Of a stretch of 64,000 nt of DNA, positions 42,940-58,287 are shown piece after piece. The stretch is from a virus, in IMG/VR virus record IMGVR_UViG_3300045988_183785, positions 305 through 64,304 of that record; one strand, given 5' to 3'. The notes beneath the pieces were generated by a model. The model ran no database searches. It was given only the letters and a program-made list of their open reading frames with translations, and was not told where the DNA came from. A program made the position numbers and the translations under genes. Position 1 is the stretch's first letter. Every line of letters starts with the position of its first letter.

Positions 42940-42999
42940 GATGTTTTCTCCTTTCTCCCAGCCTGTGATAAGGACTTACGGGAAACCAAAATAAAATGT

Positions 43000-43200
43000 A
43001 TATATAGAAAAAGACAATCACTGCCCGAAAAGGGAAGTGATTGTCTGAATTTATGATGTGACTTGAAAAACGGAGATAAAACTCCTTATAAAAATATCTT
43101 CGTAATTATACTATTATACTACCACGTTTCGCTATTTTGTCAACAGCAGCAACGTAAAAAAAGAAGCTCCCGAAGGAGCTTCTTTTGAAATTTAGTTTTT
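43000..43200 (-). promoter_or_regulatory. Repeat module R1: terminator of the upstream operon, then promoter (TTGACA-N19-TATAAT-AG-TATAAT), conserved leader and a terminator-like attenuator hairpin
   Basis: Sequence shared with 48935-49125, 52925-53112 and 55965-56160. Read on the minus strand it is TTGACAaaatagcgaaacgtggtagTATAATagTATAATtacgaagatatttttataAGGAGttttatCTCC...AGACAATCACT-loop-AGTGATTGTCT-TTTTTCTATATA. Confidence 0.6.
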
Positions 43201-43212
43201 TTTATCTTGCTT

Positions 43213-43854
43213 TTAGCATTCCCTTTTAACCATGCGCTCCTGATACTCCTTCAGAACCCTTTGGCCGTACCCATCAGCGTCGTTGCGATAATCCAAGGAA
43301 AACGCTGCGAAGGCGTCTCGCAGCACGGCGGCGCTTCTGGAAATGGTCTGGAGCAGTTCATTTTCCTGATGGCTCATTGCGGAGAGTGTGGTGTCGAAAT
43401 CCTCATGGTACTGAGCCGTCCAAGCGGTCGTAAATGTACCATCATCATCCCAAATCCACAAAGGGTCATTATGCTGCCCTTTTGCCTTGTAGAGTATATC
43501 CGTGCAATGCGACACATGGACGATATACTCGCACAGCGCAAAGTACAACTCGTGGTAGGCTTTGATGGATTTCTGTTTGCTCTCACTGTCGCTGCGGAAC
43601 AGAATACCGGAAATCAGGAGATGGGCGTAGTTTTGTTCGACGAAGCCGTATAACTCAGCCAGTTCGCGCTTCCGCAGAACCAGTTCCGCCGCGTCTTGCG
43701 GCAGGTCAGACAACTTCGGACGAACCTGTAAGGACGCACCCATCCCGATGATTGTGGCAATGGCTTCAGCCGCTTTCTCATAGCGGTTGATATACAGAAT
43801 GGTCTCTCTTATCTTCGGTATTACAAAATGGCGAATGTCGGCAGTATCCAGCAT
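43213..43854 (-). CDS. Hypothetical protein (213 aa)
   Basis: ATG preceded by AGGAGGAACAAACGAAA. Last gene of operon 2. Confidence 0.45.
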   Translation of the reverse strand: MLDTADIRHFVIPKIRETILYINRYEKAAEAIATIIGMGASLQVRPKLSDLPQDAAELVLRKRELAELYGFVEQNYAHLLISGILFRSDSESKQKSIKAYHELYFALCEYIVHVSHCTDILYKAKGQHNDPLWIWDDDGTFTTAWTAQYHEDFDTTLSAMSHQENELLQTISRSAAVLRDAFAAFSLDYRNDADGYGQRVLKEYQERMVKREC

Positions 43855-43880
43855 TTTCGTTTGTTCCTCCTTTCCGTGGC

Positions 43881-44927
43881 TTAAATGGCGCAAGTGAATG
43901 TGTCATTGCAGCCAGACTTTTCCATCTCTTTTTCCCATGCCTCAGTAATCTTGTTGCTGGGAGCGCCGGATGCCTTCTTCCATATAATAGCATCACCGCT
44001 GACTTCCAGCGCATCATCGCAAAAGACAAGCGAATTAAAGGTATGCTCGTCTTCATAGAGTGCCAGATGCATCGGGTTCAGCATGACTGCGCCTTCCGTC
44101 AGCAGCATACGGGCCCAGAGCTGGTATTCAAGCGACCAGCGGGACGTTTCTGCCGGCAGGTCGCCATACAGCTCGTCCAACTTTCGCAAGATGGAGGCGC
44201 AAATCACGCAGCCTGCGGGAGTTCCGTGATGCGTACCGAGATACGGCAGCTTGGCGAAGAATAGGGGACTCTCAGCATACTCGTCTTCCGCATAGGCGTA
44301 AAACGTTAGCTCCATGTCCGCTGCTGCGAAGAACCGGTCGGGAAGGATATCCTTCACTTTACAGTTGCTCCAGACAACATCATCCGAAAGGAATCTGAAG
44401 CCAAGAGGCTCCGTCCTATCAGGTGTGAGGTACTTCCGTGCCATATGTCGGACGAGGGCAACGAAACCCAGCTCATGCCGCAGCGTCGGCACATCGTCAA
44501 AGATTCTGTGAATGTTTGCCCACAGCTTCTCTTCGCTTCGTTCCACGCACTCGAAAAAGAGTTTGCAGGACGACCCGTGTGTGAAAGCGACACTCAGGGT
44601 CACGAGCCAAGGTGCGAAATCATCAGGCTTCAGAACATACTCTTTCTGCCCAGTACAGGCGACCGGCACAAACCAACCACCCGCACGAGCTTCGCTATAC
44701 GAAGCGTCCTCCGCAGCATAGGCGGTTGTTCTGAAGGCATCGTCGGTGTCCTTATCAGGAATATCAATGGCATCGCCCTTGCAGATATACTTGAAGGGGA
44801 CATACATTTCCACCTCTCTAATGCCGTCGCCATCTGCATCATCCGTATCACGGCAGTAACGCACGATATGGACCAATACGTTCTCGTCGCAATGCAGCTT
44901 TCGCTTGTTCGAAATCAGATTATCCAT
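43881..44927 (-). CDS. Hypothetical protein, the downstream copy of a tandem paralog pair
   Basis: 348 aa. The C-terminal half is about 70% identical to the product of 44945-45982, for example ELTFYAYAEDEYAESPLFFAKLPYLG and LEYQLWARMLLTEGAVMLNP. Confidence 0.45.
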   Translation of the reverse strand: MDNLISNKRKLHCDENVLVHIVRYCRDTDDADGDGIREVEMYVPFKYICKGDAIDIPDKDTDDAFRTTAYAAEDASYSEARAGGWFVPVACTGQKEYVLKPDDFAPWLVTLSVAFTHGSSCKLFFECVERSEEKLWANIHRIFDDVPTLRHELGFVALVRHMARKYLTPDRTEPLGFRFLSDDVVWSNCKVKDILPDRFFAAADMELTFYAYAEDEYAESPLFFAKLPYLGTHHGTPAGCVICASILRKLDELYGDLPAETSRWSLEYQLWARMLLTEGAVMLNPMHLALYEDEHTFNSLVFCDDALEVSGDAIIWKKASGAPSNKITEAWEKEMEKSGCNDTFTCAI

Positions 44928-44944
44928 GTTTTCTCCTTTCAACG

Positions 44945-45982
44945 TCAGCCAGTTACGATGCAGGTAAAAGCCTCATCGCCGGACTCACTCATGTCATTCT
45001 CCCACGCCTCGGCGATTACGCTGATAGGTGTTTTGACAGCCTTTGCCCACGCAATACCGTCACCGCTGTCTTTCAGCATTTTATTACCGAAAGCCAGCGT
45101 TTTGAATTCGTAGGCGCAGTCGGGGAGGTCGAGGTGCTTCGGATTCAGCATGACCGCACCTTCTGCCAGCAGCATACGAGCCCAAAGCTGATACTCCAGA
45201 GCCCATTTTGTTGTGTCTTCAGGCAGGTCGCCGTACATCTCATCCAGCTTCTGCAGCAGTTCTGCGATTGCAGCACGTCCCTCAGGCTTGTTGTACCGTT
45301 CGCCCAAATCGGGCAGTTTGGCAAAGAACAGGGGGGACGCTGAATACTCGCCGTCGGAATAGGCGAAGAACGTCAGCTCCATGGCAGGGGAATTGAAGAA
45401 CTTCTCAGAGAGAATGTCCTTCACACCGCACTGGGTGAAGTTTACGCTGTCCGAAATGAGGCGGAAGCCGAACTGCTCCGTCCACTCGCGGGTAAGGTCT
45501 CTCTTCGCCATGGCCGCAACCGTGTCAGAATGCCGCCCGCAGGTGTTTTCCGGAGCCACACGCGGCTCGAATCTCGCCCGCATATTGTTGACGATAGCTT
45601 CAGTATCGTTGAGGACACTCTCAAAAAGCAGCCGGCAGCCGCGCCAATCTCCTTCGTCGGTGACGGAAAGGCTGATGATATAGGGCGCAAAATCTGCAGG
45701 ATGGAGAATCAATACCGTCTTGCCGGCATCCTCAGTGACCTTAACAGACCAGCCGCACTCATTCCCGTATCGCTCGTCCTTCTCGAAAGAAGCATTTGTG
45801 AGAACGGAAAAGTGCAGTTCGTGACCGTCGCTGAAGACGCTCACAGAATCGCTCTTGCGGATGTCCTTGAAAGGAACGAATGTGGTCTCGAATCTGTCGT
45901 GCTTAGGGTTGTTGCGGGAGACCTTAACCAGCGTGTTCTCGTCGCAGAAAGCTGCGGCGGCTTTGATAGATACATTGTTCAT
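44945..45982 (-). CDS. Hypothetical protein, the upstream copy of a tandem paralog pair
   Basis: ATG preceded by AGGAGAAAAAT. Shares ELTFFAYSDGEYSASPLFFAKLPDLG and LEYQLWARMLLAEGAVMLNP with the downstream copy. Confidence 0.45.
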   Translation of the reverse strand: MNNVSIKAAAAFCDENTLVKVSRNNPKHDRFETTFVPFKDIRKSDSVSVFSDGHELHFSVLTNASFEKDERYGNECGWSVKVTEDAGKTVLILHPADFAPYIISLSVTDEGDWRGCRLLFESVLNDTEAIVNNMRARFEPRVAPENTCGRHSDTVAAMAKRDLTREWTEQFGFRLISDSVNFTQCGVKDILSEKFFNSPAMELTFFAYSDGEYSASPLFFAKLPDLGERYNKPEGRAAIAELLQKLDEMYGDLPEDTTKWALEYQLWARMLLAEGAVMLNPKHLDLPDCAYEFKTLAFGNKMLKDSGDGIAWAKAVKTPISVIAEAWENDMSESGDEAFTCIVTG

Positions 45983-46047
45983 ATTTTTCTCCTTTCTTTT
46001 TTGGGAAAGCAGGGGAGAGGCAGAGTGCCTCTCCCGCTGGCTTTGAT

Positions 46048-46215
46048 TTAACCGGTTATGACCGCCACAATAACCAAAACAATGGTGAGCGCAATAGTAC
46101 CAAAGGCAGCCGGAAGCATTTCTGGCTGGTCTGTTTTTTTTGCGGCTATGACTGAGACGACCATTGCGGCGATGATGAGAACGACATAGGCTATAAACAA
46201 GGGGTTCGTCAGCAT
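46048..46215 (-). CDS. Small membrane protein (55 aa, two TM helices)
   Basis: ATG with GGAGAAGGA upstream. Fully hydrophobic. Confidence 0.35.
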   Translation of the reverse strand: MLTNPLFIAYVVLIIAAMVVSVIAAKKTDQPEMLPAAFGTIALTIVLVIVAVITG

Positions 46216-46235
46216 TTTGAACACGTCCTTCTCCG

Positions 46236-46397
46236 TTAATACCACCGAACAAGTGCGAACAGTTCCACCATAATAACGCCCACAGAAACGCTGCAGACGA
46301 TTGGCGGCAAGAGGTCCTGTGTGTCCAGTCTCCTTATGCCAAGGAATATGCCGCACATCACGAAAATGGTCAGAGCGAAGTAAAGAATAATCGACAT
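46236..46397 (-). CDS. Small membrane protein (53 aa, two TM helices)
   Basis: Hydrophobic ORF with a weak RBS. Confidence 0.3.
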   Translation of the reverse strand: MSIILYFALTIFVMCGIFLGIRRLDTQDLLPPIVCSVSVGVIMVELFALVRWY

Positions 46398-46402
46398 TAG
46401 AG

Positions 46403-47044
46403 TTACTCCACCTCGCTCTTTTCCAGCTCGGAAAGGTTGTCGCATTCAAATCCGCAGGTCATGCAGTGATATGGACCGTAGGGGTCAGACGACTCGTAGA
46501 TGTTAGATTCGATTTCGTCGTTGATATTTCCGAGGAAATCTCCCGTTTCGATGTCAACCAACACATCAATGTGGAGGACCTGATGACCAGAGAAAGATAC
46601 GCCACCACAGTTGGGGCAGCAGCGGGTATACACCTTCTGCTCCCGCTCTGATGCACCAGATTCGATGTCTTCAAACGCTTCGGCGAGTGTGAGAAGCATC
46701 TCATTGATTTCCTTGGCGTCCTCGACAAGCACTGACAGTTTCGGAACGCCTGACGTGCCCTTTACGGAAGCCTCCGCAAACAGAGCGACGTGCTCGTCAA
46801 CGTCGAAGTCCTCGTAGACGCGGCGCACAGCAGCGGCTACTCCATCGCCGAAATCATCGTCGGCGTACAGGTCGAAGGAGTAGTCCTCGCCGGCAGGCGA
46901 CCCCTGTCTGAACGTGAACACACCACAGACCTTGTCCTCGTCGATGACCCAGCCCAACGCTTCTGCCTTTTCGCGGTAGTTGGCCGGAAGCAGGTCAGGA
47001 ACACTGGTCTGGACCTCCGCAGCGTTTTTTTGGTTATTCTCCAT
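46403..47044 (-). CDS. Hypothetical acidic protein with a C-terminal zinc ribbon
   Basis: ATG preceded by AGGAGAAAATC. Contains CCPNCGG...CMTCGFEC. Confidence 0.45.
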   Translation of the reverse strand: MENNQKNAAEVQTSVPDLLPANYREKAEALGWVIDEDKVCGVFTFRQGSPAGEDYSFDLYADDDFGDGVAAAVRRVYEDFDVDEHVALFAEASVKGTSGVPKLSVLVEDAKEINEMLLTLAEAFEDIESGASEREQKVYTRCCPNCGGVSFSGHQVLHIDVLVDIETGDFLGNINDEIESNIYESSDPYGPYHCMTCGFECDNLSELEKSEVE

Positions 47045-47066
47045 GATTTTCTCCTTTCTTTTTTCG

Positions 47067-47846
47067 TTAGGCTTCGGCGCCGAACACCTTTTTGCAGATA
47101 GAGTGAATAGCCACGAACTGTTCCTGAAGCTGTGCCGGCACAAGGGAGATGGAGAGACCGGCATCACGCCATACACTATGGCCTGCGAATGCTTTGTCCC
47201 ACAGTTCTCCACGTTCGTGCTGGGCCTCCAAGAGCCTCTCATAGCGTTCTTCTTCCGTCTTTGCAGCGCCAATGTACTGCCGTGTGTACTCGTTGAAGTC
47301 TGAAATATTCATCTCCGTCTGGTCGGTGTACTCAAAGCGGGGATATTGGGAGTCGACGAAATGGGCCGCTTCTCTGGTGAGATTGAACCCTTTCATGTAG
47401 GTACTGCCATTATCGCCCCTGAGGAACAGCAGTGACGCCTGCCAATCACGGGAGACGATTTCGTAGATTTCAGTGATAACGTCGAGCAGATTTCTCTTCT
47501 GCTCTACTGTCAATGAAATCTTCCGTTTCTGCGCCTCCTTCTGCAGAATCTGTTCCGCAGAGCTTTTGGCGCTATCCGTCATCGTAAAAGACGGCGTCCA
47601 GTCGTACATCAGAACACACTTATGGACGACGTTTGCGGCGATTGAAGCAAAAACAGGTCTGAGCTCCTCAATATCCTCTACAGACTTCTTGGCGAAGATG
47701 ATGGCGAGCTGGCAGAAATCGAGCGAGTTGTAGACAGCGTCCACAAAGGACTTCTGCTGCACTTCCCGAATCTCACTGCCGAGCTTGACCAACTCCCCGA
47801 TGTCGGTAGAGTTGATGCGCCAAGCATCAAAGATTTTTGTGCTCAT
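47067..47846 (-). CDS. Hypothetical protein (259 aa)
   Basis: ATG at MSTKIFDAW. No known domain. Confidence 0.4.
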   Translation of the reverse strand: MSTKIFDAWRINSTDIGELVKLGSEIREVQQKSFVDAVYNSLDFCQLAIIFAKKSVEDIEELRPVFASIAANVVHKCVLMYDWTPSFTMTDSAKSSAEQILQKEAQKRKISLTVEQKRNLLDVITEIYEIVSRDWQASLLFLRGDNGSTYMKGFNLTREAAHFVDSQYPRFEYTDQTEMNISDFNEYTRQYIGAAKTEEERYERLLEAQHERGELWDKAFAGHSVWRDAGLSISLVPAQLQEQFVAIHSICKKVFGAEA

Positions 47847-48211
47847 TTCAGGCACCCGCCTTCCTTGAGAATGTCCATGACCTTCTCCAACACGGTCAAC
47901 GGGGCGTTGAAGCCGAAATTGCTCACCGCCCTGCAAAGCGCCACACGCAGTTCCGCCTGCCGGTGATAGTCCTTGGCAGCCTGTTCCGTCTGATACAGCC
48001 GGTAATCTGTACTCCAGTACATGGAGTTTTGCTGGAAGTAGGGATTTCTGTTCGCATCTTCGGAAGGAGCCTTGTAGTATCGACAGTCTCTATTGTCTGT
48101 CAGCCACTTGGTTCCAACCTTGACCGTGACCTCATCCACCACCTTTCCGTGCCGCCGTTCGGCATTACTACCGATAATAGGTACGCGGTAGAGTCTCATC
48201 TCAGTGGCCAT
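47843..48211 (-). CDS. Hypothetical protein (122 aa)
   Basis: ORF with overlapping start/stop to its neighbours (operon arrangement). Confidence 0.4.
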   Translation of the reverse strand: MATEMRLYRVPIIGSNAERRHGKVVDEVTVKVGTKWLTDNRDCRYYKAPSEDANRNPYFQQNSMYWSTDYRLYQTEQAAKDYHRQAELRVALCRAVSNFGFNAPLTVLEKVMDILKEGGCLK

Positions 48212-48410
48212 TGTTCTTACTCCTTTCTTCGTCTGTCAGCCCACCATCCACAGCCATGTCCATCAGCGTATTGATGACGCTGGTTAGACGCTGTGCGAAC
48301 GGGGTGTAGGGGTTCGACAACTCACTGCGGCGCTCCATCAGAATCGCCATAGCAAACTTAGCGTCATTGACGCTCTTCAGCTCTTCGATTGTCCAGCGAT
48401 GCTTACTCAT
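48201..48410 (-). CDS. Hypothetical small protein (69 aa)
   Basis: Coupled ORF within the operon. Confidence 0.3.
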   Translation of the reverse strand: MSKHRWTIEELKSVNDAKFAMAILMERRSELSNPYTPFAQRLTSVINTLMDMAVDGGLTDEERSKNNGH

Positions 48411-48715
48411 GCTCTTGCACCCCCTTCCATAACAGGCCGGTCGGCATAAGCCGACTGCAACGCGAACTCCATAGCGGAGATGACCTGTGCGATTGAGGGC
48501 GTAGGCTTACTCAAATCGCGGGCATATCCGCACCTGTCGTTCAGGTGGGTAGTCAGGGTGTCCCTGACCTTTCCCTGTATTCCCGTTATTTCCAGCAGCC
48601 GCCTCAGAGCGTCGCTGACGTCTTTTGCGGGCAACTTCTTGCGGGGGTGGAACAACAACTCGTTCCGATACTGAGACAATGTGCTGTCAATAAAGTGCAG
48701 CGAAGATGTATCCAT
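48407..48715 (-). CDS. Hypothetical protein (102 aa)
   Basis: Coupled ORF within the operon. Confidence 0.35.
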   Translation of the reverse strand: MDTSSLHFIDSTLSQYRNELLFHPRKKLPAKDVSDALRRLLEITGIQGKVRDTLTTHLNDRCGYARDLSKPTPSIAQVISAMEFALQSAYADRPVMEGGARA

Positions 48716-48730
48716 TTTATTCTCCTTTCT

Positions 48731-48907
48731 CTAAATCTGCTTGTAAGGCCCAAGTGTGATAGACAGGTTGTAGATATAATTACCACAACGCACACATTCG
48801 TCGTTCTTTCCCCACAAGCCGCTTGCTTTCATACCGCGCACGCTGCCTGTATAATGGATAGACGGGTGTGTATCGCACTCGTGCTGGGTAAGCTCCTTTT
48901 GTTTCAT
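48731..48907 (-). CDS. Small Cys/His-containing protein (58 aa), first gene of operon 2
   Basis: ATG 8 nt after AAGGAG. Sequence MKQKELTQHECDTHPSIHYTGSVRGMKASGLWGKNDECVRCGNYIYNLSITLGPYKQI. It falls below the 60-aa ORF cutoff. Confidence 0.3.
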   Translation of the reverse strand: MKQKELTQHECDTHPSIHYTGSVRGMKASGLWGKNDECVRCGNYIYNLSITLGPYKQI

Positions 48908-48934
48908 GCGTTTACTCCTTTCGTTTTTACTTGT

Positions 48935-49125
48935 TCTGAATATATAAAAAGACAGTCGTTCCCAAATGAGAACAACTGTCTTGAATATGATGATGTGACT
49001 GAAAACGGAGATAAATCTCCTTATAAAAATATCTTCGTAATTATACTACTATACTACCACAATTCTTTATAATGTCAACGGAAACGGTACAAAAAAAGAA
49101 GCCCCCGAAAGAGCTTCTTTTTAAG
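48935..49125 (-). promoter_or_regulatory. Repeat module R2 (terminator, promoter, leader and attenuator hairpin)
   Basis: Read on the minus strand: TTGACAttataaagaattgtggtagTATAGTagTATAATtacgaagatatttttataAGGAGAtttATCTCCgttttcagtcacatcatcatattcAAGACAGTTGTTC-loop-GAACGACTGTCTTTTTATATAT. Confidence 0.6.
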
Positions 49126-49131
49126 TTAAGG

Positions 49132-49635
49132 TTATTCGTTCTTTGCAGTCTTATCGGCGATACCATCGAAGATGTTGCCAACAACACGGATTTCGGTGCC
49201 GAGCAGCTTACAAAACGGAACAAAATGTCCGTTGTCGTAAGCCTCGTCCATCAGCTCTGCTGCCGTTTTTGTTTTCAAAGACTCACTAACCAGCAGGCCA
49301 AAAGAACCATTTCGGAACACAACCGTGTTCTCGTTGAAGAGAGGAGTGGGGCGGAATCCTTCAAAGGTCTCCACGATGTCTCCTTCGAACACCTTTGCGC
49401 CGTCCTTGTCGATGATGCCGGTGTACTGCGTTACGGTATCCGCGTAGACACCGCAAACGTCGCGGCTTTCAGCCGTGTCGGACAAGTACGTGTAGATGAT
49501 GGCGAAGTCCTTCGGGCTATTATGGGGACGTGCGGCGCCCCCGTAGACCCAAATTCCCGGCAGGGGTGCTCCGGTTGCCATGCGAACTTTCTCGCCATGC
49601 CGCCGAACCTGACCACGAAACAGGATTTCTTTCAT
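49132..49635 (-). CDS. YopX-family phage-associated protein
   Basis: The N-terminus MKEILFRGQ fits the YopX start (MKEIKFRAW...). Length 167 aa. Last gene of operon 3. Confidence 0.5.
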   Translation of the reverse strand: MKEILFRGQVRRHGEKVRMATGAPLPGIWVYGGAARPHNSPKDFAIIYTYLSDTAESRDVCGVYADTVTQYTGIIDKDGAKVFEGDIVETFEGFRPTPLFNENTVVFRNGSFGLLVSESLKTKTAAELMDEAYDNGHFVPFCKLLGTEIRVVGNIFDGIADKTAKNE

Positions 49636-49656
49636 TGTTTTTTTCTCCTTTCATTT

Positions 49657-49956
49657 TTAATGCAGTCCGTGGAGCTTTTTCCACTGGGCCTTGTCCATCC
49701 AAGGTCCGTCAAAGCTGTCGTCCACACACTCTGTTCTGAGACAGTTAGGGCAGACGAGACAGTCCACAGCCCGCCGGACACGACCGGTCTTGAACCGCAC
49801 ACCATGTTGGATGATTTCTTCCTCCTCCACGAAGTAGCTCGGTTCAAGCTCGCAGCCACAGGTGCCGCAGATGCCAAACGGGTTTGCATTGGACTCGTAG
49901 GTGCCGTTCTGTTTTTGGATATTCTCCTGAATCACTGCATGGTAATCCGTCGCCAT
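49657..49956 (-). CDS. Hypothetical zinc-finger protein (99 aa)
   Basis: Contains CGTCGC...CLVCPNC. Confidence 0.4.
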   Translation of the reverse strand: MATDYHAVIQENIQKQNGTYESNANPFGICGTCGCELEPSYFVEEEEIIQHGVRFKTGRVRRAVDCLVCPNCLRTECVDDSFDGPWMDKAQWKKLHGLH

Positions 49957-50693
49957 CAGAACTTCACCTCCTCAAATTCAATGACCCATACCCACGGGTT
50001 TCCGGCCCACTTTGACAGGGCCTTGTGTTCGGGAATCGTGCTGTCCCACAGCTCGATAAACTTCTCCTGAAGGGACATGGTGTTCTCGCCGGAGGTACTG
50101 TCACAGGTGATGCCCTCCTTAGTGAAGTCCTCGTCCTTCATGTCATTCAAATGTTCCAACCGCACATCCGTCACACGCAGGAAAATGCGTGCCGCCTCTT
50201 TGGGCATATGAATGGACGGTGTCCAGTGAATGAGGGAACTCACCTCAGGGGAGTTTTTCAAATCCTCATCCGAATAATCGGCCTTATAGAGCCAGCGGTT
50301 CTCGGCGCAGGCACAAGTCGTCTCACGGACATACAGGATATCGCCCTTATCAAACGGGGCGCGAAAGCTGCGAATAACGGTATTCTCATCAGCGAAAGCG
50401 GCCACGAGACGTCCGTCTCCGTCGCGATACAGTCCATCCGCTCTCTTTCCTGCGAAGTGGAATGCACCACGGCGAGTCACTGTCTTGCGACCCTCCCGGA
50501 TGGCTCGAACCATCTCTCCGTTGAAAATAATGGGCTTAGGCTTTTTGTCCTTAAAGGCATCGGGGTCAAAATGGATGCCGGCTTTCTCGCGCAGTTCCTT
50601 GCAACGAGAGCCACGATAGATGTCTGTGTCGCACTCTTTGACAGGACAATGTGAGAGGCAGATTCGCCGCTCATAAGGTTCCTTTCTGGGCAT
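49956..50693 (-). CDS. PUA-like (ASCH / DUF3850-type) domain protein
   Basis: PIIFNGEMVRAIREGRKTVTRR resembles the GxKTxExR / GRKTQTRR signature of ASCH-like prophage proteins. The assignment is tentative. Confidence 0.4.
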   Translation of the reverse strand: MPRKEPYERRICLSHCPVKECDTDIYRGSRCKELREKAGIHFDPDAFKDKKPKPIIFNGEMVRAIREGRKTVTRRGAFHFAGKRADGLYRDGDGRLVAAFADENTVIRSFRAPFDKGDILYVRETTCACAENRWLYKADYSDEDLKNSPEVSSLIHWTPSIHMPKEAARIFLRVTDVRLEHLNDMKDEDFTKEGITCDSTSGENTMSLQEKFIELWDSTIPEHKALSKWAGNPWVWVIEFEEVKF

Positions 50694-50721
50694 ATGTTTT
50701 TTCTCCTTTCTTTTCCGGGGG

Positions 50722-51174
50722 TCACTCGTATTCCTGACAACAAAGGTCGTAGACCTTATGCAGCGCAGCTAACGCCGCCTCAGGAATATCCTGAGTGTCC
50801 ATATCAAACCATTCGCCGAGCAATCCGGTAACATCTCCAAGGAACAGGAACTCGTCGAACACTTCCGACGGCGTACCGGAACCTTCTTTGCTTACTTTGC
50901 GCCGCTTATGTGGTGAAGTTCCGCGACAGGCATCCAGTGCATCCTGCAGGAGCGATACCGCACCCTTGGGAATTTCACCGGTATCCATTTTCAGCCAATT
51001 TACCAGAGTCTCGATAACATCATCGAGGAACACATAATTGCACTCGCAGATAATTCTCGCCATCTGCAAATGTCGAATTGCGTCCGTTGGGATGTCGGTA
51101 ATGTCATACTCGGTGAGCTGCTTCTTCAGGCTTTTTACGACCTCATCGCGGGACAAAACTTTGTTTCTTCCCAT
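50722..51174 (-). CDS. Hypothetical protein with two internal ~25-aa repeats
   Basis: ATG preceded by AGGAGAG. Repeats WLKMDTGEIPKGAVSLLQDALDAC and WFDMDTQDIPEAALAALHKVYDLC. Confidence 0.4.
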   Translation of the reverse strand: MGRNKVLSRDEVVKSLKKQLTEYDITDIPTDAIRHLQMARIICECNYVFLDDVIETLVNWLKMDTGEIPKGAVSLLQDALDACRGTSPHKRRKVSKEGSGTPSEVFDEFLFLGDVTGLLGEWFDMDTQDIPEAALAALHKVYDLCCQEYE

Positions 51175-51203
51175 GTTACTCTCCTTTCTTTTTTTTGCGG
51201 ATT

Positions 51204-51755
51204 TCAACTGCTCTGCCTCAGTGTATCAGGCACGGCACCGAAGCTCTGCGCGGCTGGGTAGGCGGGAGGGAAGGGGATAGCCCCTCCTCTCGCTACCTGA
51301 GCCACCACGAGGGTGCTAATGCCGCCAGAGGGCGTTCTGTATTGCTGAACGCTTGGCGTGTAGAGAAACCCATCTACCGCTTGTCTCACGGTCATTGTGG
51401 GGTATTTTGGCGCCCGCCAACGATGCTCCTTAGAATAGTAGATTTCCCTGACCCGGCACGTTGCAACTGTGACGGGAATGAGGGGATTGTCTACCGTATG
51501 TTCACACACGATGGCGATAGATGTCTTTCCAATTCTGGAAGCATCCTCCACCATGCGCTGGAGCGCGAGTCTCTGACCATAAGGCATTGCGGCATTACGA
51601 TGCTTTACCTCAAAGAAAACATACCCCTTGTCGTGATACTCAATGAGTCCGTCGATGTCGGTAGGATAACAGTTACCCTTGTTTTCAATAGTCATGCCCG
51701 TGAAGCTGACGAGCTGTTTCATTCTTGCGGGAAATCTAATGTAGTCCTTCCTCAC
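51204..51755 (-). CDS. Hypothetical protein (about 184 aa)
   Basis: GTG start 5 nt after AGGAGG. The longer ORF call has no RBS. Confidence 0.4.
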   Translation of the reverse strand: MRKDYIRFPARMKQLVSFTGMTIENKGNCYPTDIDGLIEYHDKGYVFFEVKHRNAAMPYGQRLALQRMVEDASRIGKTSIAIVCEHTVDNPLIPVTVATCRVREIYYSKEHRWRAPKYPTMTVRQAVDGFLYTPSVQQYRTPSGGISTLVVAQVARGGAIPFPPAYPAAQSFGAVPDTLRQSS

Positions 51756-51783
51756 GGGAGCCTCCTTTTTGCCGGCATCCCCC

Positions 51784-52116
51784 TCAGCGGGGGATGCCTT
51801 TGCCGTTTTTGAGCATGGAAATGACTTTTGCGGCCAAGAAATCGTCGGCCACAAACTGGTTATAGCCGTTTTTCAGACCGTTGCTGGAGAAATCTTCTGT
51901 GTCCTTGGCGTAGCGGCACATGGATTTGTCGGAAATAGGTCCATAGCAAGAGTGCTCGGTGGTTACATAGACGCAACTCTCTCCGCAAGTCACGAAGCCA
52001 GAGCAGCCGCGCTTCTGTCCGTTGACTGTGATGTTCTTCAGGTGCGTGGTAATGTCCATGCCCATCTGTTCTGCCAAAGAGGTAAGTCCGTTTTTCAGCT
52101 TTACAGAAAGCAACAT
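51784..52116 (-). CDS. Hypothetical protein (about 110 aa)
   Basis: ATG at MLLSVKL with a weak RBS. Confidence 0.35.
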   Translation of the reverse strand: MLLSVKLKNGLTSLAEQMGMDITTHLKNITVNGQKRGCSGFVTCGESCVYVTTEHSCYGPISDKSMCRYAKDTEDFSSNGLKNGYNQFVADDFLAAKVISMLKNGKGIPR

Positions 52117-52118
52117 TC

Positions 52119-52871
52119 TTACACCGCCTTTCTTTCTACCCAGACATCGCCCAACTTGGCGCACTCGCCGTGGTAAGGGCAGTCGTGATAGGTTTCGCAA
52201 CCCTCATCAACGAAGGTCTGGCAGGTGCCACAGTCCAAATTGTGATGCAGAAGACGCTGGATAACATCCCGCGCATTTTCGGTCTCTACCGCGAGGTAGG
52301 AAAAAGCTCTCGCCTTGACGCTTGCATCGTACTCATCCGTGTAGTAGAGGGAAGACGCACAGAGAACCTTTGCGCCGAACACACGGCGGCACTCCTCATC
52401 GGAGAGCATTTCACCGGCAAACGGGAAAAGACCGCGTCTGCCTCTGAGCTGGTTGCTGACGTGTGTGTGCGCGTTCTTTGCCAACTTAACGCCCTCACGA
52501 GCCTCATCCAGTGTGTCGAAGGACAACGCACACACATCCACAAGAGAACCTTCGCCGATAGGGGAGTGGTTCACAAAAAGCATCGCGTATCTTCTGCTGG
52601 GAAGGGTTGCAGTTCTCGCTGCATCCTCGCCTTCGAGACACACGTAACGCGCCACTTTGTCGTCCCACACATACTTCTCACAGGAGGTGCAGGTGTTCTC
52701 TGCCTTATCACATCCGGATTTCGACGCAACGACCTTCAGCTCGGCTGCTTTTTTTTCTGCCTCGCACTTATCCACAGCGGCAAAGCACACTTTTCGTCCC
52801 TTTTCCTCATCGAAACGATAGTGCTCACATAACGCACAGGAACCAGCAGGCTTTTCACAGATATATGCCAT
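52119..52871 (-). CDS. Cys-rich hypothetical protein (250 aa), first gene of operon 3
   Basis: ATG preceded by AGGAGAAAAAT. Many CxxC pairs (CALCEH, CTSCEKY, CGTCQTF, CPYHGEC). Confidence 0.45.
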   Translation of the reverse strand: MAYICEKPAGSCALCEHYRFDEEKGRKVCFAAVDKCEAEKKAAELKVVASKSGCDKAENTCTSCEKYVWDDKVARYVCLEGEDAARTATLPSRRYAMLFVNHSPIGEGSLVDVCALSFDTLDEAREGVKLAKNAHTHVSNQLRGRRGLFPFAGEMLSDEECRRVFGAKVLCASSLYYTDEYDASVKARAFSYLAVETENARDVIQRLLHHNLDCGTCQTFVDEGCETYHDCPYHGECAKLGDVWVERKAV

Positions 52872-52924
52872 ATTTTTCTCCTTTCTCCCAGCCTGTGTTA
52901 AGGTCTTATGGGAACAAAAATGTA

Positions 52925-53112
52925 GTGAATATATAAAAAGACAGTCGTTCTCAAAAGAGAACAACTGTCTTGAATGTGATGATGTGACTGAAAACGGAGA
53001 CAAAGCTCCTTATAAAAATATCTTCGTAATTATACTACTATACTACCACATTTCCTTATAATGTCAACGGTTTCGACGCAAAAGAAAAGAGCCGCACAGC
53101 GGCTCTTTTTTT
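52925..53112 (-). promoter_or_regulatory. Repeat module R3 (terminator, promoter, leader and attenuator hairpin)
   Basis: Same architecture as R2. The leader hairpin is AAGACAGTTGTTCTC-tttt-GAGAACGACTGTCTT followed by TTTTATATAT. Confidence 0.6.
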
Positions 53113-53124
53113 TAGGCTTGTTGT

Positions 53125-54084
53125 TCACGCTTCTACGTAAACTGGTTTAAGATACTGTGCGCTGAGAAATTTGCCTCGCAAGGAAGAAATCTTTGCCTCA
53201 GCGTCTTTCTCACTGATAAACCTCTGAGCATCATCCACGGAGGACGTGTACTGGAGGTTGTTCTTCACGGATTTCTTCACATACTTCCCTGCGTATGCCT
53301 TTTCCGTACACATAACGACATAGGGCCGAGGCGCCGTCATCTTGCGCGTTACGGTCTTGAACTCAAGTCCCATTACGCTGATAACCTCTCCCATTGCTGC
53401 CGTAGCTGCTTCCGCAGACGGGTAGTGAATGGCATCTCTGACATCCTTTGTGAAATGCACAGTTATTCTTCCAATCACATTATCAAATGCACGCACATAG
53501 CCCGCGTTGCGCTTTTGAACTACAAGCGGACCCTTTACATCCCGCGCTCTGGCAGGTCGCAGGCGCTCGCCGCGCTGTGTTCCGCTGAACGACATGAAGA
53601 TGTAGTGGTCCTTGTGTTCTTTTACCAGTTCCCGTGCCTCATCCAGCCAGACTTCCAGCTCATCCGTTGTTCTGACATACCTCCACAGCAGATGGTCGCC
53701 GGACGTATAGGGCATCAGCCCTACATTCAGGTCGTTGACGCCGGGATTGGCGGCGAGGATGTCCTCCAGCGTGGCGGCATCCTTTGCGGCGCGAGCAAAC
53801 CATTTCCGTGCCTGAGAGCAAGTGACCCACTTGCTGTTCATCTTCCAGCACTCATCATCGGTGTCGGGGAAGGTGGTATTCACCTTCGCCACAAATTCGT
53901 CCTCAGGAAGTTCCAGAAGATTGATTCCTCCCAGCAAGAACCAGTGGCGCTCGCGAATCTCTCGCGGCTTGAAATTCCTGTCGTAGATGAACTCGGAGCA
54001 GTTGTTGCTGCCACCCAAGGCAAGGGGAATGATACCACGAGTTGTCTTGATGAAAGAGCGGGCATCAATGATAGTGTATCCCAT
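53125..54084 (-). CDS. Hypothetical protein (319 aa), last gene of operon 4
   Basis: ATG at MGYTIID. No confident domain. Confidence 0.45.
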   Translation of the reverse strand: MGYTIIDARSFIKTTRGIIPLALGGSNNCSEFIYDRNFKPREIRERHWFLLGGINLLELPEDEFVAKVNTTFPDTDDECWKMNSKWVTCSQARKWFARAAKDAATLEDILAANPGVNDLNVGLMPYTSGDHLLWRYVRTTDELEVWLDEARELVKEHKDHYIFMSFSGTQRGERLRPARARDVKGPLVVQKRNAGYVRAFDNVIGRITVHFTKDVRDAIHYPSAEAATAAMGEVISVMGLEFKTVTRKMTAPRPYVVMCTEKAYAGKYVKKSVKNNLQYTSSVDDAQRFISEKDAEAKISSLRGKFLSAQYLKPVYVEA

Positions 54085-54100
54085 TTTTACATCTCCTTTC

Positions 54101-54370
54101 TTACATCTCGCCATCCTCGGCAGCGGTTATAATACCGAATCTGAGGTTGTTGTTGATGTCGTAGATACTTAATCCGCTATCAAAGTCCTTGCGGAGCTGC
54201 GTCGCAGCGGCCTCTACGGAGTCTTCGCCGTACTCAAACGTCTCGGACTCGACGCAGGTTGCCACAAGCTCCTTCAGCTTTGCGCGGGAAGTCGTCGCAG
54301 AAACCAGACGCATAGAGTCTGTTGCTTTCCAAGCGTCACAGGCAAACACGATGAAGATAGGATTACTCAT
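54101..54370 (-). CDS. Hypothetical small protein (89 aa) immediately downstream of the MazF-like gene
   Basis: ATG at MSNPIFIVF. It overlaps the stop of the MazF-like gene by 8 nt. Confidence 0.4.
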   Translation of the reverse strand: MSNPIFIVFACDAWKATDSMRLVSATTSRAKLKELVATCVESETFEYGEDSVEAAATQLRKDFDSGLSIYDINNNLRFGIITAAEDGEM

Positions 54371-54941
54371 TTTCGGCTTGCTCCTTTCTTCTTCCAACGG
54401 TGGCTGCGGGGTACGGTGTGGCCCGCTTGTTGTTGCTGTCCATGATTCGCATAACATGGACAAGCATCTCGGAATATGCCCTGTGCATGGTTTCATACCG
54501 CGCACGCCATGTATTATCATCATTGTCGTTCACGCGAGCACTCAGCCCCATGCTGTAGTACAGCGCGGCGTCGATGTCTACCAGCTCCGCTTCAGTCAGG
54601 TGGCAGATATAGGCTCCCAGCTCATTGACAGAAACTGCCATCGGCTGCTCGCACAGTGCTGTGCTGGGGCGGCTCGTGCTCGTGATGAGTACATGGGAGG
54701 GCTGCTGCATCTTTGGAGATGATGTCGTAAATACGACCTCCACTACACTGCTGTAGCGGTTCAGGTCATCCGAAGATACAACGATTGCGGGACGATGCCC
54801 TCTGATAACAGAGCTATTGGAAGGATGTCCGTCTTTATCGCGGAACTGGCTTCCTTCCGGGGCCCAAGGGGAAAAGATTTCGATTTCTTTCGCATTGACC
54901 CAAAAAACATCGCCCCTGCGGATGTTTCCATTTCTACCCAT
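54363..54941 (-). CDS. MazF/PemK-family toxin-like protein with a C-terminal extension of about 70 aa
   Basis: RGDVFWVNAKE...GHRPAIVVSSDDLNRYSSVVEVVFTTSS matches the PemK/MazF signature (RGDIY.VDF...RPAVVIS...N.....V.VVP.TS). Total length 192 aa, against about 110 aa for canonical members. Confidence 0.6.
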   Translation of the reverse strand: MGRNGNIRRGDVFWVNAKEIEIFSPWAPEGSQFRDKDGHPSNSSVIRGHRPAIVVSSDDLNRYSSVVEVVFTTSSPKMQQPSHVLITSTSRPSTALCEQPMAVSVNELGAYICHLTEAELVDIDAALYYSMGLSARVNDNDDNTWRARYETMHRAYSEMLVHVMRIMDSNNKRATPYPAATVGRRKEQAENE

Positions 54942-55149
54942 AGATTCTTGTCTCCTTTCCTTCAGAATTGGTTACACACGACGGAATGCCGAAAAAAGAC
55001 AGAACCGCTTTAAGCGGCTCTGTCTCCATGCAGTCGATATGACACTGTTTGTTTTCGTAGGGTGCCTCGACAAATTCTTCGCCAACCTCAATGGGTTCGT
55101 GGCAAATGCAGCATTCGCCGGCGTAACGAATTTTCTTTTTTGCTTTCAC
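54934..55149 (-). CDS. Small zinc-ribbon protein (71 aa), a candidate cognate antitoxin
   Basis: Contains CCICHEPI...CHIDC. Its stop overlaps the start of the MazF-like gene by 8 nt. Confidence 0.4.
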   Translation of the reverse strand: MKAKKKIRYAGECCICHEPIEVGEEFVEAPYENKQCHIDCMETEPLKAVLSFFGIPSCVTNSEGKETRIYG

Positions 55150-55170
55150 AATGAATTTACTCCTTTCTTT

Positions 55171-55374
55171 TCAAAGTTGCCGAGACAGTGTTACGGCTGC
55201 CTGCTGGCGTCGTCTTTCGCAGTTTCTTCGCTGCACTTCGATAGCTTCGCGAGCCTCCGCAATACACTGCTTCGCACGCCTATCCTGTTCAGAAGAGAAA
55301 GATGCGTAGCGCTCAGAGTAGACGGAATCCATACGCTCGGCTCTCTCAATTAACTCATACAGCGGTGTAGACAT
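55171..55374 (-). CDS. Hypothetical small protein (67 aa)
   Basis: ORF within operon 4. Confidence 0.3.
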   Translation of the reverse strand: MSTPLYELIERAERMDSVYSERYASFSSEQDRRAKQCIAEAREAIEVQRRNCERRRQQAAVTLSRQL

Positions 55375-55390
55375 AGCTTCTCCTCCTCGT

Positions 55391-55663
55391 TTATTGAATG
55401 TTCATGCCTACGGCGCGAGGACCTTCTTTGGACCAAGTTTCCTTGAGCCAGTGATAGGTGATTGTGCTATCTTCGGGACTCTTGTCTGGGTAGCAGGGAA
55501 GGTATGCTGCGGAGTACAAGTCTCTGCACTGACTGAAGTACACATGATTCCAGTCAGCCCACACATCACCAAGAGAACGGATAGCTCGCTTGAACGACCG
55601 AAAGCTCTGTGGCGTGTGAACTACGATGGCATTTGCTCCGTTCCACTTTCCATTCCACATCAT
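55391..55663 (-). CDS. Hypothetical protein (90 aa)
   Basis: ORF within operon 4. Confidence 0.35.
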   Translation of the reverse strand: MMWNGKWNGANAIVVHTPQSFRSFKRAIRSLGDVWADWNHVYFSQCRDLYSAAYLPCYPDKSPEDSTITYHWLKETWSKEGPRAVGMNIQ

Positions 55664-55929
55664 TGCACTTCACCTCCCTGATACGTCGGGCGGCTGCGTC
55701 TGTTACGGAACGGAGGCATCACCGGTGCGGTGTAGCTGGTCAGCTCACCCGTCATTTTGACAGGCACACACTGGAGCAATCCGCGCTGTTTTCGATACTG
55801 GTGAGCCAAGTTGTTGCGAGCCTGTTTCTCAGAAACCGCCATAGTCGTCCCGCCCCACTTATTTGTGGTAATGTCGTCATAGACACGAACGGGTCCGAGA
55901 TAGCTGAAAACCATTTTTGCCTGTGCCAT
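55660..55929 (-). CDS. Hypothetical protein (89 aa), first gene of operon 4
   Basis: ATG preceded by AGGAGAAAACAT. Confidence 0.35.
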   Translation of the reverse strand: MAQAKMVFSYLGPVRVYDDITTNKWGGTTMAVSEKQARNNLAHQYRKQRGLLQCVPVKMTGELTSYTAPVMPPFRNRRSRPTYQGGEVQ

Positions 55930-55964
55930 TATGTTTTCTCCTTTCTTATTGTGTTGTAATGTAA

Positions 55965-56160
55965 AAAAATATATAAAAAGACAGCTATCCCTGTCTTGGG
56001 ATAACTGTCTTGAATACTTGGTGTGACTGGAAGCGGAGATAAGTCTCCTTATAAAAATATCTTCGTAATTATACTATTATACTACCACAATTATTTATAA
56101 TGTCAACAATGGCAGAGAAAAAAGAGGCGGCTTTCGCCTGCCTCTTTTTTTACCTTATTT
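55965..56160 (-). promoter_or_regulatory. Repeat module R4 (terminator, promoter, leader and attenuator hairpin)
   Basis: Read on the minus strand: TTGACAttataaataattgtggtagTATAATagTATAATtacgaagatatttttataAGGAGActtATCTCC...AAGACAGTTATCCC-aagaca-GGGATAGCTGTCTT followed by a T run. Confidence 0.6.
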
Positions 56161-57322: not shown

Positions 57323-58287
57323 TTGTTTTCCTCCTTAAAGTGTTCAAGTCTTTCGGAAAACTTTTGCAGCGCTTTTCTAAACTCAATTTTGCAGGTGGTT
57401 GACATGAAATAATAGGCGGAAACAATATCTTCTGTCGTAGAGTTTTTCGCATAAAGTCGCATTGTGCTTGGCATCCCCATGAGCCAGTGTAAAGAGACGC
57501 CAAAGGCAGCCGCTATATGCGGCAGAATTCTTTCGTTGCTTGTGGAGCAGGAGGGTCTCACCAACATGATATTCGCCAACTCGTGAATGACATCCTTTTG
57601 TTTATCATCTAATTCAAAATTGCCTTTTCCGGACTGAATCAATTCATCCAAATCGAGAATATCCTGTCGCTTAAATGAACATCTGTGGGAAAAAACGTAC
57701 TGTACTCGCGCAGAAGGGCGCAGCAATAAGCTGCGTTTTTTATCATCCCAGAATTGATGTATCCACATCGTATCAATCATGCCGAGAGCTGACTCTCTTA
57801 TGCATCCGTCTCTTATCGTTTCTGGAAAGCTATCTACAAGATTATAGACTTCTTGAACATCTGGCGGCAGGCTGCTGAAAGCTGGAAAGTTTTTATCTCC
57901 GAATCGAATCATTTCCTCGTAAGATATGTCCAACTCGGCAAGAATCCGAAAAACGATTTGCCAGTTAAATCCCTGCCAGCCTATAAATCGCTGTGTTTCT
58001 CCGTTTGTAATGGGAGTTTTATCAAATAAAAGGGCTGGCAGCTTTTCTTCTGGACAATTAAGCTGTTCGGCTAACCGCAGCTTTTTCATTTCTGCCCTGT
58101 ATGGCGTGGTGTCTGTGATAATGTTGTTTACTCTTGCCATGTTGCCTGCATCCTCCGCAATTCTTAATTTGCGGAGGAGCAGGACTATAGAGGTATAGAC
58201 AGTTGTTGAGACGTTTTCTCCGTACCTTATATCGTCTCCAGCTCGTGCCGGCTTTGTGGGATTTGTTCTTTTATAAATAGCACTCAT
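57319..58287 (-). CDS. Hypothetical protein (322 aa)
   Basis: Translationally coupled to recG (4-nt overlap). Confidence 0.45.
   Translation of the reverse strand: MSAIYKRTNPTKPARAGDDIRYGENVSTTVYTSIVLLLRKLRIAEDAGNMARVNNIITDTTPYRAEMKKLRLAEQLNCPEEKLPALLFDKTPITNGETQRFIGWQGFNWQIVFRILAELDISYEEMIRFGDKNFPAFSSLPPDVQEVYNLVDSFPETIRDGCIRESALGMIDTMWIHQFWDDKKRSLLLRPSARVQYVFSHRCSFKRQDILDLDELIQSGKGNFELDDKQKDVIHELANIMLVRPSCSTSNERILPHIAAAFGVSLHWLMGMPSTMRLYAKNSTTEDIVSAYYFMSTTCKIEFRKALQKFSERLEHFKEENK

Follow-up and report, generated by a model that had tools for sequence, protein, structure and literature searches.

The window analysed here comprises 64,000 nucleotides (nt) of the IMG/VR virus record IMGVR_UViG_3300045988_183785 (positions 305 to 64,304), and the subject of this study is a repeated cassette, made of a promoter, a short leader and an intrinsic terminator, which heads successive operons on its minus strand. 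A repeat search of the window revealed one four-copy family of 191 nt, at 42997-43187, 48932-49122, 52921-53111 and 55960-56150. The four copies, R1 to R4, all lie on the minus strand and can be aligned from an upstream hairpin with its T-run through a second hairpin with its T-run; a 44-mer, GTGGTAGTATARTAGTATAATTACGAAGATATTTTTATAAGGAG, is identical in all four, for a chance expectation of 0. When a covariance model built from related copies (see below) was run on the window, it found R1-R4 only, at 96-118 bits, the runner-up being at 24 bits. A first-pass annotation of the window had described four near-identical minus-strand modules of five elements each; all five are present in every cassette and in the order it gave, i.e. 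an upstream terminator, TTGACA, a duplicated -10, a GGAG-N6-CTCC hairpin and a 14-15-bp hairpin followed by a U-run. The components are located as follows (SD, Shine-Dalgarno).

55975-56151, minus strand: cassette R4, whole (upstream terminator, promoter, leader, leader terminator)
56118-56151, minus strand: intrinsic terminator closing the RecG-like operon, immediately upstream of the R4 promoter
56101-56106, minus strand: -35 of R4, TTGACA
56079-56087, minus strand: extended -10 of R4, TGG+TAGTAT, with a 16-nt spacer
56068-56073, minus strand: second, -10-like TATAAT of R4; the predicted start is the A at 56072
56035-56048, minus strand: small leader hairpin of R4, GGAGA-CUUA-UCUCC, which includes the SD-like AAGGAG
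55975-56011, minus strand: leader terminator of R4 (14-bp stem, U5, AUAUAU)
52935-53113, minus strand: cassette R3, whole (upstream terminator 53080-53113; -35 53062-53067; TGnTAGTAT 53040-53048)
53029-53034 and 52996-53009, minus strand: -10-like TATAAT and small hairpin of R3
52935-52971, minus strand: leader terminator of R3 (15-bp stem and U5)
48946-49122, minus strand: cassette R2, whole (upstream terminator 49091-49122; -35 49073-49078; TGnTAGTAT 49051-49059)
49040-49045 and 49007-49020, minus strand: -10-like TATAAT and small hairpin of R2
48946-48982, minus strand: leader terminator of R2 (15-bp stem and U5); the next SD is only ~25 nt away
43008-43186, minus strand: cassette R1, whole (upstream terminator 43156-43186; -35 43138-43143; TGnTAGTAT 43116-43124)
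43105-43110 and 43072-43085, minus strand: -10-like TATAAT and small hairpin of R1
43008-43046, minus strand: leader terminator of R1 (14 pairs, one internal mismatch, U5)

A consensus scan identified the same sigmaA-type promoter in all four cassettes: TTGACA, a 16-nt spacer and an extended -10, TGnTAGTAT. The consensus promoter call of the annotation was therefore sound; the unusual 19-nt spacing that it reported is an artefact of the hexamer chosen, the canonical arrangement being TTGACA-16-TGnTAGTAT. A second, consensus TATAAT lies 8 bases 3' of the first -10 hexamer, which would place it at about -1 to +5 if transcription starts 7 nt after TAGTAT. The leader opens with AUAAUUACGAAGAUAUUUUUAUAAGGAG, continues with a 4-5-bp hairpin, GGAG(A)...(U)CUCC, and then GUUUUCAGUCACAUCA, and leads, ~100 nt from the predicted start, to a terminator with a 14-15-bp stem (-21 to -23 kcal/mol) and, after it, U5 and AUAUAU. 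The stems are not perfectly self-complementary, as had been stated, since they include G-U pairs and the R1 stem has one mismatch. At the other end of the cassette, 12-16 nt upstream of each -35, stand canonical operon-end terminators of 11-14 pairs; the assignment of an intrinsic terminator of the upstream operon to each module was thus right. The promoters and terminators of R1-R4 are the best consensus matches within 20 kb.

Several familiar types of leader were looked for. Direct reading found no ATG or GTG in the leader; a leader peptide is ruled out, there being no start codon after the SD-like AAGGAG. The minimum free energy (MFE) folds contain no antiterminator helix competing with the terminator, which is present in every fold. 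An alternative 5' helix, ACGAAGAUA/UAUCUCCGU, is possible and, being invariant, lies outside the reach of covariation. No Rfam family was assigned by either gathering or permissive scans; the best match, GcvB (36.6 bits), was under the 42-bit cut-off and on the opposite strand, and for these reasons was taken as a chance match. A riboswitch, a T-box or a leader-peptide attenuator was set aside on the same three grounds (no Rfam match, no leader ATG or GTG, no competing helix in MFE folds). An inverted-repeat search of the cassette returned only the two terminators and the small hairpin; a mobile repeat akin to miniature inverted-repeat transposable elements was rejected, as there are no terminal inverted repeats and the upstream boundary is variable.

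The cassettes precede the operons listed below (ORF, open reading frame; aa, amino acids).

53125-55943, minus strand: R4-driven operon (SD/ATG 55927-55943; first gene of 89 aa; MazF/PemK-like toxin 54363-54941)
49132-52883, minus strand: R3-driven operon (ATG 52869-52871; first gene Cys-rich, 250 aa; YopX 49132-49635)
43213-48920, minus strand: R2-driven operon (ATG 48905-48907; first gene of 58 aa; tandem paralogues 43881-44942 and 44945-45997)
36392-42953, minus strand: R1-driven operon (ATG 42937-42939; AAA_5/CobS-like ATPase 41074-42939)
38338-40560 and 36392-37765, minus strand: further genes of the R1 operon, CobT/vWA protein and HD-domain protein
56150-60512, minus strand: RecG-like helicase operon, not cassette-driven (ordinary promoter TTGACA-18-TATAAT, 60483-60512, without leader)

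Together the four cassette-driven operons cover 36.4-55.9 kb. Of the ~23-kb island of four operons proposed at first, the four co-oriented cassette operons stand; the operon upstream of R4, whose genes span 56150-60437, has its own promoter, and the island is itself part of a ~172-kb element with 13 cassettes (see below). In the window the next ORF, with an AAGGAG ribosome-binding site, begins 38-68 nt past the U-run and, among the 137 closely related copies described below, 134 have a co-oriented SD and ORF within 38-99 nt, with ~13 different first genes. An internal promoter between terminator and ORF was sought and discarded: the only matches were of the TTGRGA-15-TATATT type, with a poor spacer and inconsistent among copies, and the ~25-nt gap between terminator and SD in R2 leaves no room for one. 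Without room for a promoter of their own, or a consistent one, the downstream genes depend on read-through of the leader terminator, which supports what had been surmised from the four modules. Most of the cassette-driven genes are ORFans. The recognisable products are a MazF/PemK toxin, MazE and RelB antitoxins, YopX, SSB, a YqaJ exonuclease, a DUF4942/methyltransferase protein, a radical-SAM protein and the AAA_5-CobT/vWA pair. In the R2 operon, the tandem paralogues (minus strand, ~350 aa each, of unknown function) contain a 131-nt repeat that is 76% identical.

The cassette is not confined to the window. The exact 44-mer was found in 74 stretches of IMG/VR contigs, and looser patterns brought the collection to 137 copies (50 distinct sequences) of what we call clade 1, of which 44 distinct transcribed parts were used for covariation analysis. 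A sister clade, clade 2, whose proteins are ~60% identical, occurs on contigs of 174-192 kb with 12-14 cassettes per genome, all on a single strand. The leader terminator is present in 137/137 clade-1 copies and in 46/46 distinct clade-2 sequences (84 copies), with stems of 14-17 bp. Over the 44 sequences, 97.9% of the cells of the terminator helix are paired and both sides have changed in 7 of its 15 pairs; there are 34 compensatory cells for 8.9 in column shuffles, a value reached by none of 500 shuffles, and pairing falls to ~50% in a control in which the 3' partner is slid. The base of the stem, AAGACAG/CUGUCUU, is nearly invariant, variation being confined to the upper half. That the last hairpin forms a conserved structure in the RNA, with changes that compensate one another, has thus held with added homologs. 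The upper stem often reads TTATCCC...GGGATRG (55978-56011 in the window and most clade-2 copies), and TTATCCC is also the Reg576 operator heptamer of plasmid p576 (PMC8708921); this likeness is probably due to chance, since clade 1 does not conserve the heptamer, whose orientation is also different.

Among 241 copies (overlapping loci led to a few being counted twice), TTGAC and TG are found in all, the first -10 hexamer is TAGTAT in 233 and TAATAT in 8, and the second hexamer is TATAAT in 240. The stem of the small leader hairpin, with the SD-like AAGGAG inside, never varies; it gives no covariation signal either way and, because of this invariance, is beyond covariation testing. Its loop does vary (AUUUAU, UUUUAU, CUUUGU, ACUUAU, and 3 nt in clade 2), which speaks against a specific loop of the boxB kind. 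Outside IMG/VR, megablast found no match among INPHARED phages, and its sole match among PLSDB plasmids, to a Pusillibacter megaplasmid, was the size of a tRNA; GTDB genomes scanned with an exact 22-mer gave no match.

The organisation of the family is best seen in contig IMGVR_3300045988_183931 (172,021 bp), which has 13 cassettes on one strand, nine at 120.8-165.4 kb and four at 14.9-27.9 kb, the latter spaced like R4 to R1 of the window. The cassettes are all on a single strand within each of 20/20 contigs. A cassette-free gap of 21.5 kb in other contigs equals the wrap-around distance in the 172,021-bp contig, and the molecule is therefore probably circular or circularly permuted. Within each clade the paralogous cassettes evolve in concert: in clade 2, all of them show TAGTATAG-AATTATAAT (the second TATAAT is retained and the 'TAG' lost), GAAGCU where clade 1 has GAAGAU, AUAAAGGAG with one additional A, and a loop shorter by 1 nt, and all clade-1 paralogues carry the alternative state at these four positions. 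Concerted evolution is what is expected if one factor reads all copies; gene conversion could contribute as well. The first of these differences also bears on the duplicated -10. A direct-repeat operator, TAGTATAR-TAGTATAA, was considered and is weakened by the fact that clade 2 retains TATAAT only; that TATAAT is kept despite the loss of 'TAG' argues for a -10-like element rather than for such an operator.

More distant relatives were reached via homologues of the AAA protein (identities in parentheses). In loci L099 (48%) and L097 (36%), a leader terminator of 13-16 bp comes after a sigmaA promoter; its stem base (A)AGACAG...CUGUCUU is kept and the upper stem is different; the same stem base is kept in L094 (69%). 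L098 (34%) has a promoter and leader terminator of unrelated sequence. L095 and L096 (37%; AT-rich, 144-kb contig) have their own five-copy cassette, unrelated in sequence and identical in geometry: TTGACT-17-TGTGnTATAAT, TATAnn at about -1 to +5, an invariant UAUGAAGUUUAGAA, an 8-bp leader hairpin and a 13-16-bp terminator (positions about 3376, 9437, 14949, 17077 and 19444 in L095). The occurrence of the same architecture with other sequences in distant relatives indicates that it is older and more widespread than this particular sequence.

As to the nature of the element, it is common in human-gut assemblies: 1086 blocks of the assembly collection, Hadza samples included, list one of its proteins, on contigs of 167-176 kb. 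Some 7 kb beyond the right end of the window (L090-L093), a large serine recombinase is encoded, directly followed in two contigs by host genes. The flanking fragment of a sigma gene, 161 codons long, is the 3' part of a 256-aa gene, of which Oscillospiraceae bacterium UBA6409 has an uninterrupted version (98% identity); the insertion junction is ...YGVP|MIVGEIRR, with a core of about TGCCCATG (loci L092:17579-18069 and L186:2716-3486). Since this gene is split at the junction and intact in UBA6409, the element is integrative and interrupts a sporulation sigma gene of its Oscillospiraceae host, which we take to be sigG-like by analogy with Bacillus subtilis SigG. To our knowledge, the intervening elements described so far interrupt genes expressed in the mother cell, and a sigG-like gene would be an unusual site for one. 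In metagenomes the element is present in circular as well as in integrated form. IMG/VR classes the contigs as viral; only 3 of 20 proteins matched PHROGs, all of unknown function, NCBIfam was uninformative, and no structural (virion) genes were found in the ~140 kb of the element that the data covered. Relatives of the AAA-vWA operon adjoin genes for TrbC/VirB2-like pilins, ParA, a sortase and a topoisomerase. To judge from its genes, the element looks more conjugative or integrative than phage-like, and the cassette-driven genes (SSB, YqaJ, YopX, MazEF, methyltransferase, AAA-vWA) are of the early or accessory type, which does not agree with the phage-late-gene style of control first proposed for them.

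With a strong promoter, a conserved terminator, and no other promoter, antiterminator fold or leader ORF, the default outcome would be a ~100-nt RNA and a silent operon. The explanation that we prefer, with a probability of roughly 0.4, is that each cassette is a default-off unit, and that this regulon-wide attenuator is relieved by one trans-acting factor loaded in the manner of Q or AlpA. The host sigmaA RNA polymerase would start at the strong TTGACA-16-TGnTAGTAT promoter, make the ~100-nt leader and, unless modified, halt at the terminator, whose 14-17-bp stem can be compared with the 9±2 bp reported as the norm in B. subtilis (PMC10325885). A single factor encoded by the element would recognise the invariant segment from about -16 to +30, common to the 13 cassettes, and let polymerase read through, so that ~13 operons are turned on together. 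More precisely, sigmaA may re-bind the consensus TATAAT at about -1 to +5 and cause polymerase to pause; a DNA-bound antiterminator could then load onto the paused enzyme and block formation of the terminator hairpin. From the sequence we infer the start site, the pause, the efficiency of termination, and the existence and nature of the factor.

Among known mechanisms, the cis layout would best fit Q/AlpA-type, promoter-proximal loading. All Q proteins require a -10-like element in the initially transcribed region and an adjacent binding site; in PalpB, the required -10-like element is at -1 to +5, and AlpA enables polymerase to pass an intrinsic terminator further on (PMC9371919). In B. subtilis, sigmaA remains on elongating RNA polymerase (PMC12478191), which makes a sigma-dependent pause plausible in Firmicutes. 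The Q/qut-like idea put forward at first sight thus gains some support from the sequence of the second TATAAT, nearly invariant and, for the predicted start, at the position of the -10-like element of PalpB. No protein to go with it was found: Q, AlpA/HTH_17, NusG/KOW, ANTAR and CAT_RBD were absent, as were other antiterminator families, from Pfam scans of ~190 proteins of at least 55 aa from the ~140 kb covered. A Q/AlpA-like family could be too divergent for detection.

This absence is the first of several points that weigh against an attenuator relieved by a single factor. With a modified polymerase of full processivity, one would not expect the strong operon-end terminators that are retained just upstream of most cassettes. 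A terminator with a 15-bp stem resisted the processive antiterminator conAn (PMC10325885). The leader hairpin, with its variable loop, would not offer a specific target of the boxB type. As the start is predicted, the second TATAAT could be a mere alternative -10. A consensus promoter and a leaky terminator could suffice for constitutive expression without any factor. The more specific proposal of a Firmicute Q/AlpA-like system, with an unrecognised protein family, 13 identical loading sites by which a single factor would turn on close to half of the 172-kb element, and co-evolution of factor and sites between the clades, we hold to be unlikely.

Some candidate DNA-binding proteins of the element deserve mention. 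L100:6171-6683 (at about 112.5 kb of contig 183931, 8 kb upstream of the first cassette) codes for a 170-aa protein with a LexA-type winged helix (LexA_DNA_bind) and a C-terminal zinc ribbon, without peptidase domain. An orphan N6/N4 DNA methylase is its neighbour, and the protein counts as a candidate regulator of the cassettes. So do the products of the last two genes of the RecG-like operon, upstream of R4 (57319-58287 and 56150-57322), where XRE-type helix-turn-helix motifs seem to be present by eye; a match to the 434 repressor was non-significant, and structure predictions of the two proteins (mean pLDDT, a per-residue confidence score, of 34 and 39.5) were too low for use.

These same three proteins would also be candidates if control were exerted at initiation, by a master repressor for which the invariant -16 to +30 segment is the operator; the terminator would then be a leaky damper or insulator, with partial and constitutive read-through. 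We consider this rather unlikely; it may also coexist with the relieved attenuator. In SPbeta, repeated conserved elements (SPBRE) at the promoters of ~10 early operons are bound by one repressor, MrpR (PMC10516654), and in p576 the strong promoters of establishment operons are flanked by dual heptamer operators, EGeRS2 being the site for Reg576 (PMC8708921). The invariance of the cassette reaches over promoter DNA, concerted evolution suits any shared DNA-binding factor, and the gene content is establishment- or early-like (SSB, methyltransferase/DUF4942, YqaJ, toxin-antitoxin pairs). What a repressor leaves unexplained is the long-stem terminator, present in every copy and in distant relatives; moreover, +1 to +30 contains no palindrome or repeat typical of operators, and the tandem TAGTATA repeat is not kept as a repeat in clade 2, where only the TATAAT remains.

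The invariance of the leader, and the bracketing of each cassette by terminators, would also be expected of a cis-acting antiterminator RNA in the style of HK022 put, EAR or Tn916 canT: the leader RNA would make its own polymerase terminator-resistant, and the flanking terminators would only stop polymerases coming from elsewhere. There is a precedent in canT, a processive RNA antiterminator acting in cis in Tn916, where terminators insulate the integrated element from outside transcription (PMC11658703). The leader before the terminator is nevertheless only ~60 nt long, with one 4-5-bp hairpin and no covariation, whereas the known class needs at least ~70 nt of structured RNA. Rfam, which includes EAR, gave no match at or near the gathering score on the correct strand. 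In addition, a terminator after the promoter insulates no better than one upstream, and read-through at operon ends would be constitutive. This explanation appears improbable.

Still less probable is that the cassettes serve to make the ~100-nt terminated RNA, as a multicopy small RNA from 13 genes that would act in trans (through its CUCC on ribosome-binding sites, or as a decoy), downstream expression being incidental read-through. A strong promoter, a defined terminator and a 5' segment of 60 nt identical in all copies are what such genes would have, and on direct reading the element's own ribosome-binding sites, GAAAGGAGA, have a complement similar to the anti-SD-like UCUCCGUUUU; but no copy is free-standing, each being 38-99 nt upstream of a co-oriented ORF without other promoter, and no extended complementarity was found elsewhere in the element, only chance matches of at most 15 nt. 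Lastly, a function as single-stranded DNA during conjugative entry (promoters or priming sites like Frpo or ssi, with hairpins in the transferred strand) is hardly credible: the pilin, ParA and sortase genes next to relatives of the AAA-vWA operon, the co-orientation of the cassettes over ~80 kb, as in a leading region, and compensatory changes that would equally preserve a DNA hairpin are compatible with it, but the -35/-10 region has no partner in a long inverted repeat, the promoter is of the normal duplex kind, and a hairpin and T-run right after a promoter are most simply an RNA terminator.

Two further sequence features lie between the leader terminator and the downstream gene. The first is a second conserved element of the 5' untranslated region (UTR), found in the window at two places.

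52874-52914, minus strand: second conserved 5'-UTR element of the R3 operon, UUCCC-RUAAGN-CCUUAWCACAGG-CU-GGG, abutting the SD; structure tentative
42944-42984, minus strand: second conserved 5'-UTR element of the R1 operon, before the SD

The motif, extended by -AGAAAGGAG, lies between leader terminator and SD in most other cassettes of the family, and also at L094:105-155. In longer variants a hairpin is inserted in the inner loop, RUAAGU remaining constant. The outer helix appears to change in a compensatory manner (CCC/GGG, GAGC/GCUC, GCCC/GGGC), and the element may be a translational or processing signal. The second is UACAU, just 3' of the terminator in most cassettes (...UUUACUACAUUUUU..., e.g. 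55950-55970, 52915-52935 and 42985-43005), which we take to be the cleavage motif of B. subtilis MazF/EndoA. The regulon encodes MazF-like toxins (54363-54941 in the window) and MazE antitoxins; the co-occurrence may be coincidental.

Other genes of the window code for topoisomerase III, YdjM, an SPFH protein, a NucA-like nuclease, four tRNAs and TnpB. Two giant surface proteins are encoded on the plus strand at its left end, by 7-10341 (more than 3444 aa, running off the window start) and 12223-17889 (1888 aa); these adhesins of the TQ/SpaA/thioester type contain a thioester domain, many SpaA domains and TQ ester-bond domains, 18 of them in the first protein and 5 in the second. Elsewhere the element encodes a 1119-aa SHIRT-domain protein and a sortase; Gram-positive conjugative elements typically have such a load of adhesins. 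An 86-nt repeat (94% identical) lies at 63051-63136, just 3' of the IS605-family TnpB gene (61758-63002, plus strand), and again at 32875-32960 and 33245-33286; tRNA genes are at 32781-32865 and 61199-61552, and two copies of the repeat adjoin a tRNA gene 30 kb from TnpB. The repeat could be the right-end guide (omega/reRNA) region of TnpB, together with solo copies.

Promoter-proximal antitermination has so far been found mainly in single late operons of proteobacterial phages. If our preferred explanation is true, it would be extended to a multi-operon Firmicute regulon, in which one switch governs 13 operons over ~80 kb of a very common and uncharacterised element of human-gut Oscillospiraceae. 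The cassette would be a compact, portable default-off expression unit for Clostridia, and the hunt for the trans factor would have 13 identical reporters at its disposal. Even under a repressor and a leaky attenuator, the cassettes define a co-regulated set of genes that are otherwise almost all ORFans.

How do the cassettes compare with known systems? The leading regions of F and ColIb-P9 resemble the element in that homologous repeats, Frpo/ssi, divide a co-oriented block of early genes into operons; Frpo differs in being a long hairpin of single-stranded DNA that creates a promoter only when single-stranded, whereas the cassette has a duplex promoter and no such hairpin. With conAn of pLS20, canT of Tn916, LoaP, lambda N/nut and HK022 put, the cassettes have in common a leader element that stands between promoter and intrinsic terminators and decides the transcription of what follows. 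Those processive systems have one loading site per long operon, instead of one per short operon as here, and the leader of the cassette is short, with almost no structure; the proteins scanned included no NusG paralogue and no ConAn1-like product. The 4-5-bp hairpin of the leader invites comparison with nut, but its loop is variable and it shows no covariation; N-like proteins are unrecognisable by profile search.

As a repeated header of operons, the cassette is similar to two Firmicute systems, since the same DNA element stands at the promoters of many operons (13 in the 172-kb contig, 12-14 in clade 2). In the SPBRE/MrpR system of SPbeta, a conserved element is repeated at the promoters of ~10 co-regulated operons of a large Firmicute element, which likewise uses a large serine recombinase for integration and interrupts a sporulation-related gene; SPBRE is a 15-bp operator motif, which sets it apart from the ~130-bp promoter-leader-terminator unit of the cassettes, and the passages on it mention no leader terminator (PMC10516654). 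EGeRS1 and EGeRS2, in plasmids of the pLS20 family, are near-identical regulatory sequences directly upstream of the ribosome-binding sites of several accessory or anti-restriction operons; EGeRS2 provides a strong sigmaA promoter with tandem-repeat operators, and EGeRS1 blocks read-through from upstream (PMC8708921). The cassettes are unlike EGeRS1, which is 420-750 bp long, GC-rich and multi-hairpin, without a sigmaA promoter (PMC8708921), and unlike EGeRS2, for which no leader terminator is described; there is no sequence relationship between either of them and the cassettes.

In its predicted working, the cassette is akin to lambdoid PR'-qut-tR' with Q and to PalpB-tB with AlpA in Pseudomonas aeruginosa, which have a strong promoter for the housekeeping sigma factor, a -10-like element in the initially transcribed region and, ~100-200 nt downstream, an intrinsic terminator, so that a short terminated RNA is made by default and the genes are expressed upon read-through. 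Unlike these, which occur as one copy, the cassettes are present in 13 copies per genome and in a Firmicute host; no Q or AlpA homologue was detected, accessory or early-type genes take the place of lysis or structural genes, and the operon-end terminators are retained. What would be new with respect to PR'-tR' and PalpB-tB, as read from the DNA, is a unit multiplied 13-fold to head each accessory or early operon of a Firmicute integrative element, with no recognisable antiterminator; with respect to SPBRE and EGeRS as repeated headers, it is the addition of a promoter-proximal terminator.

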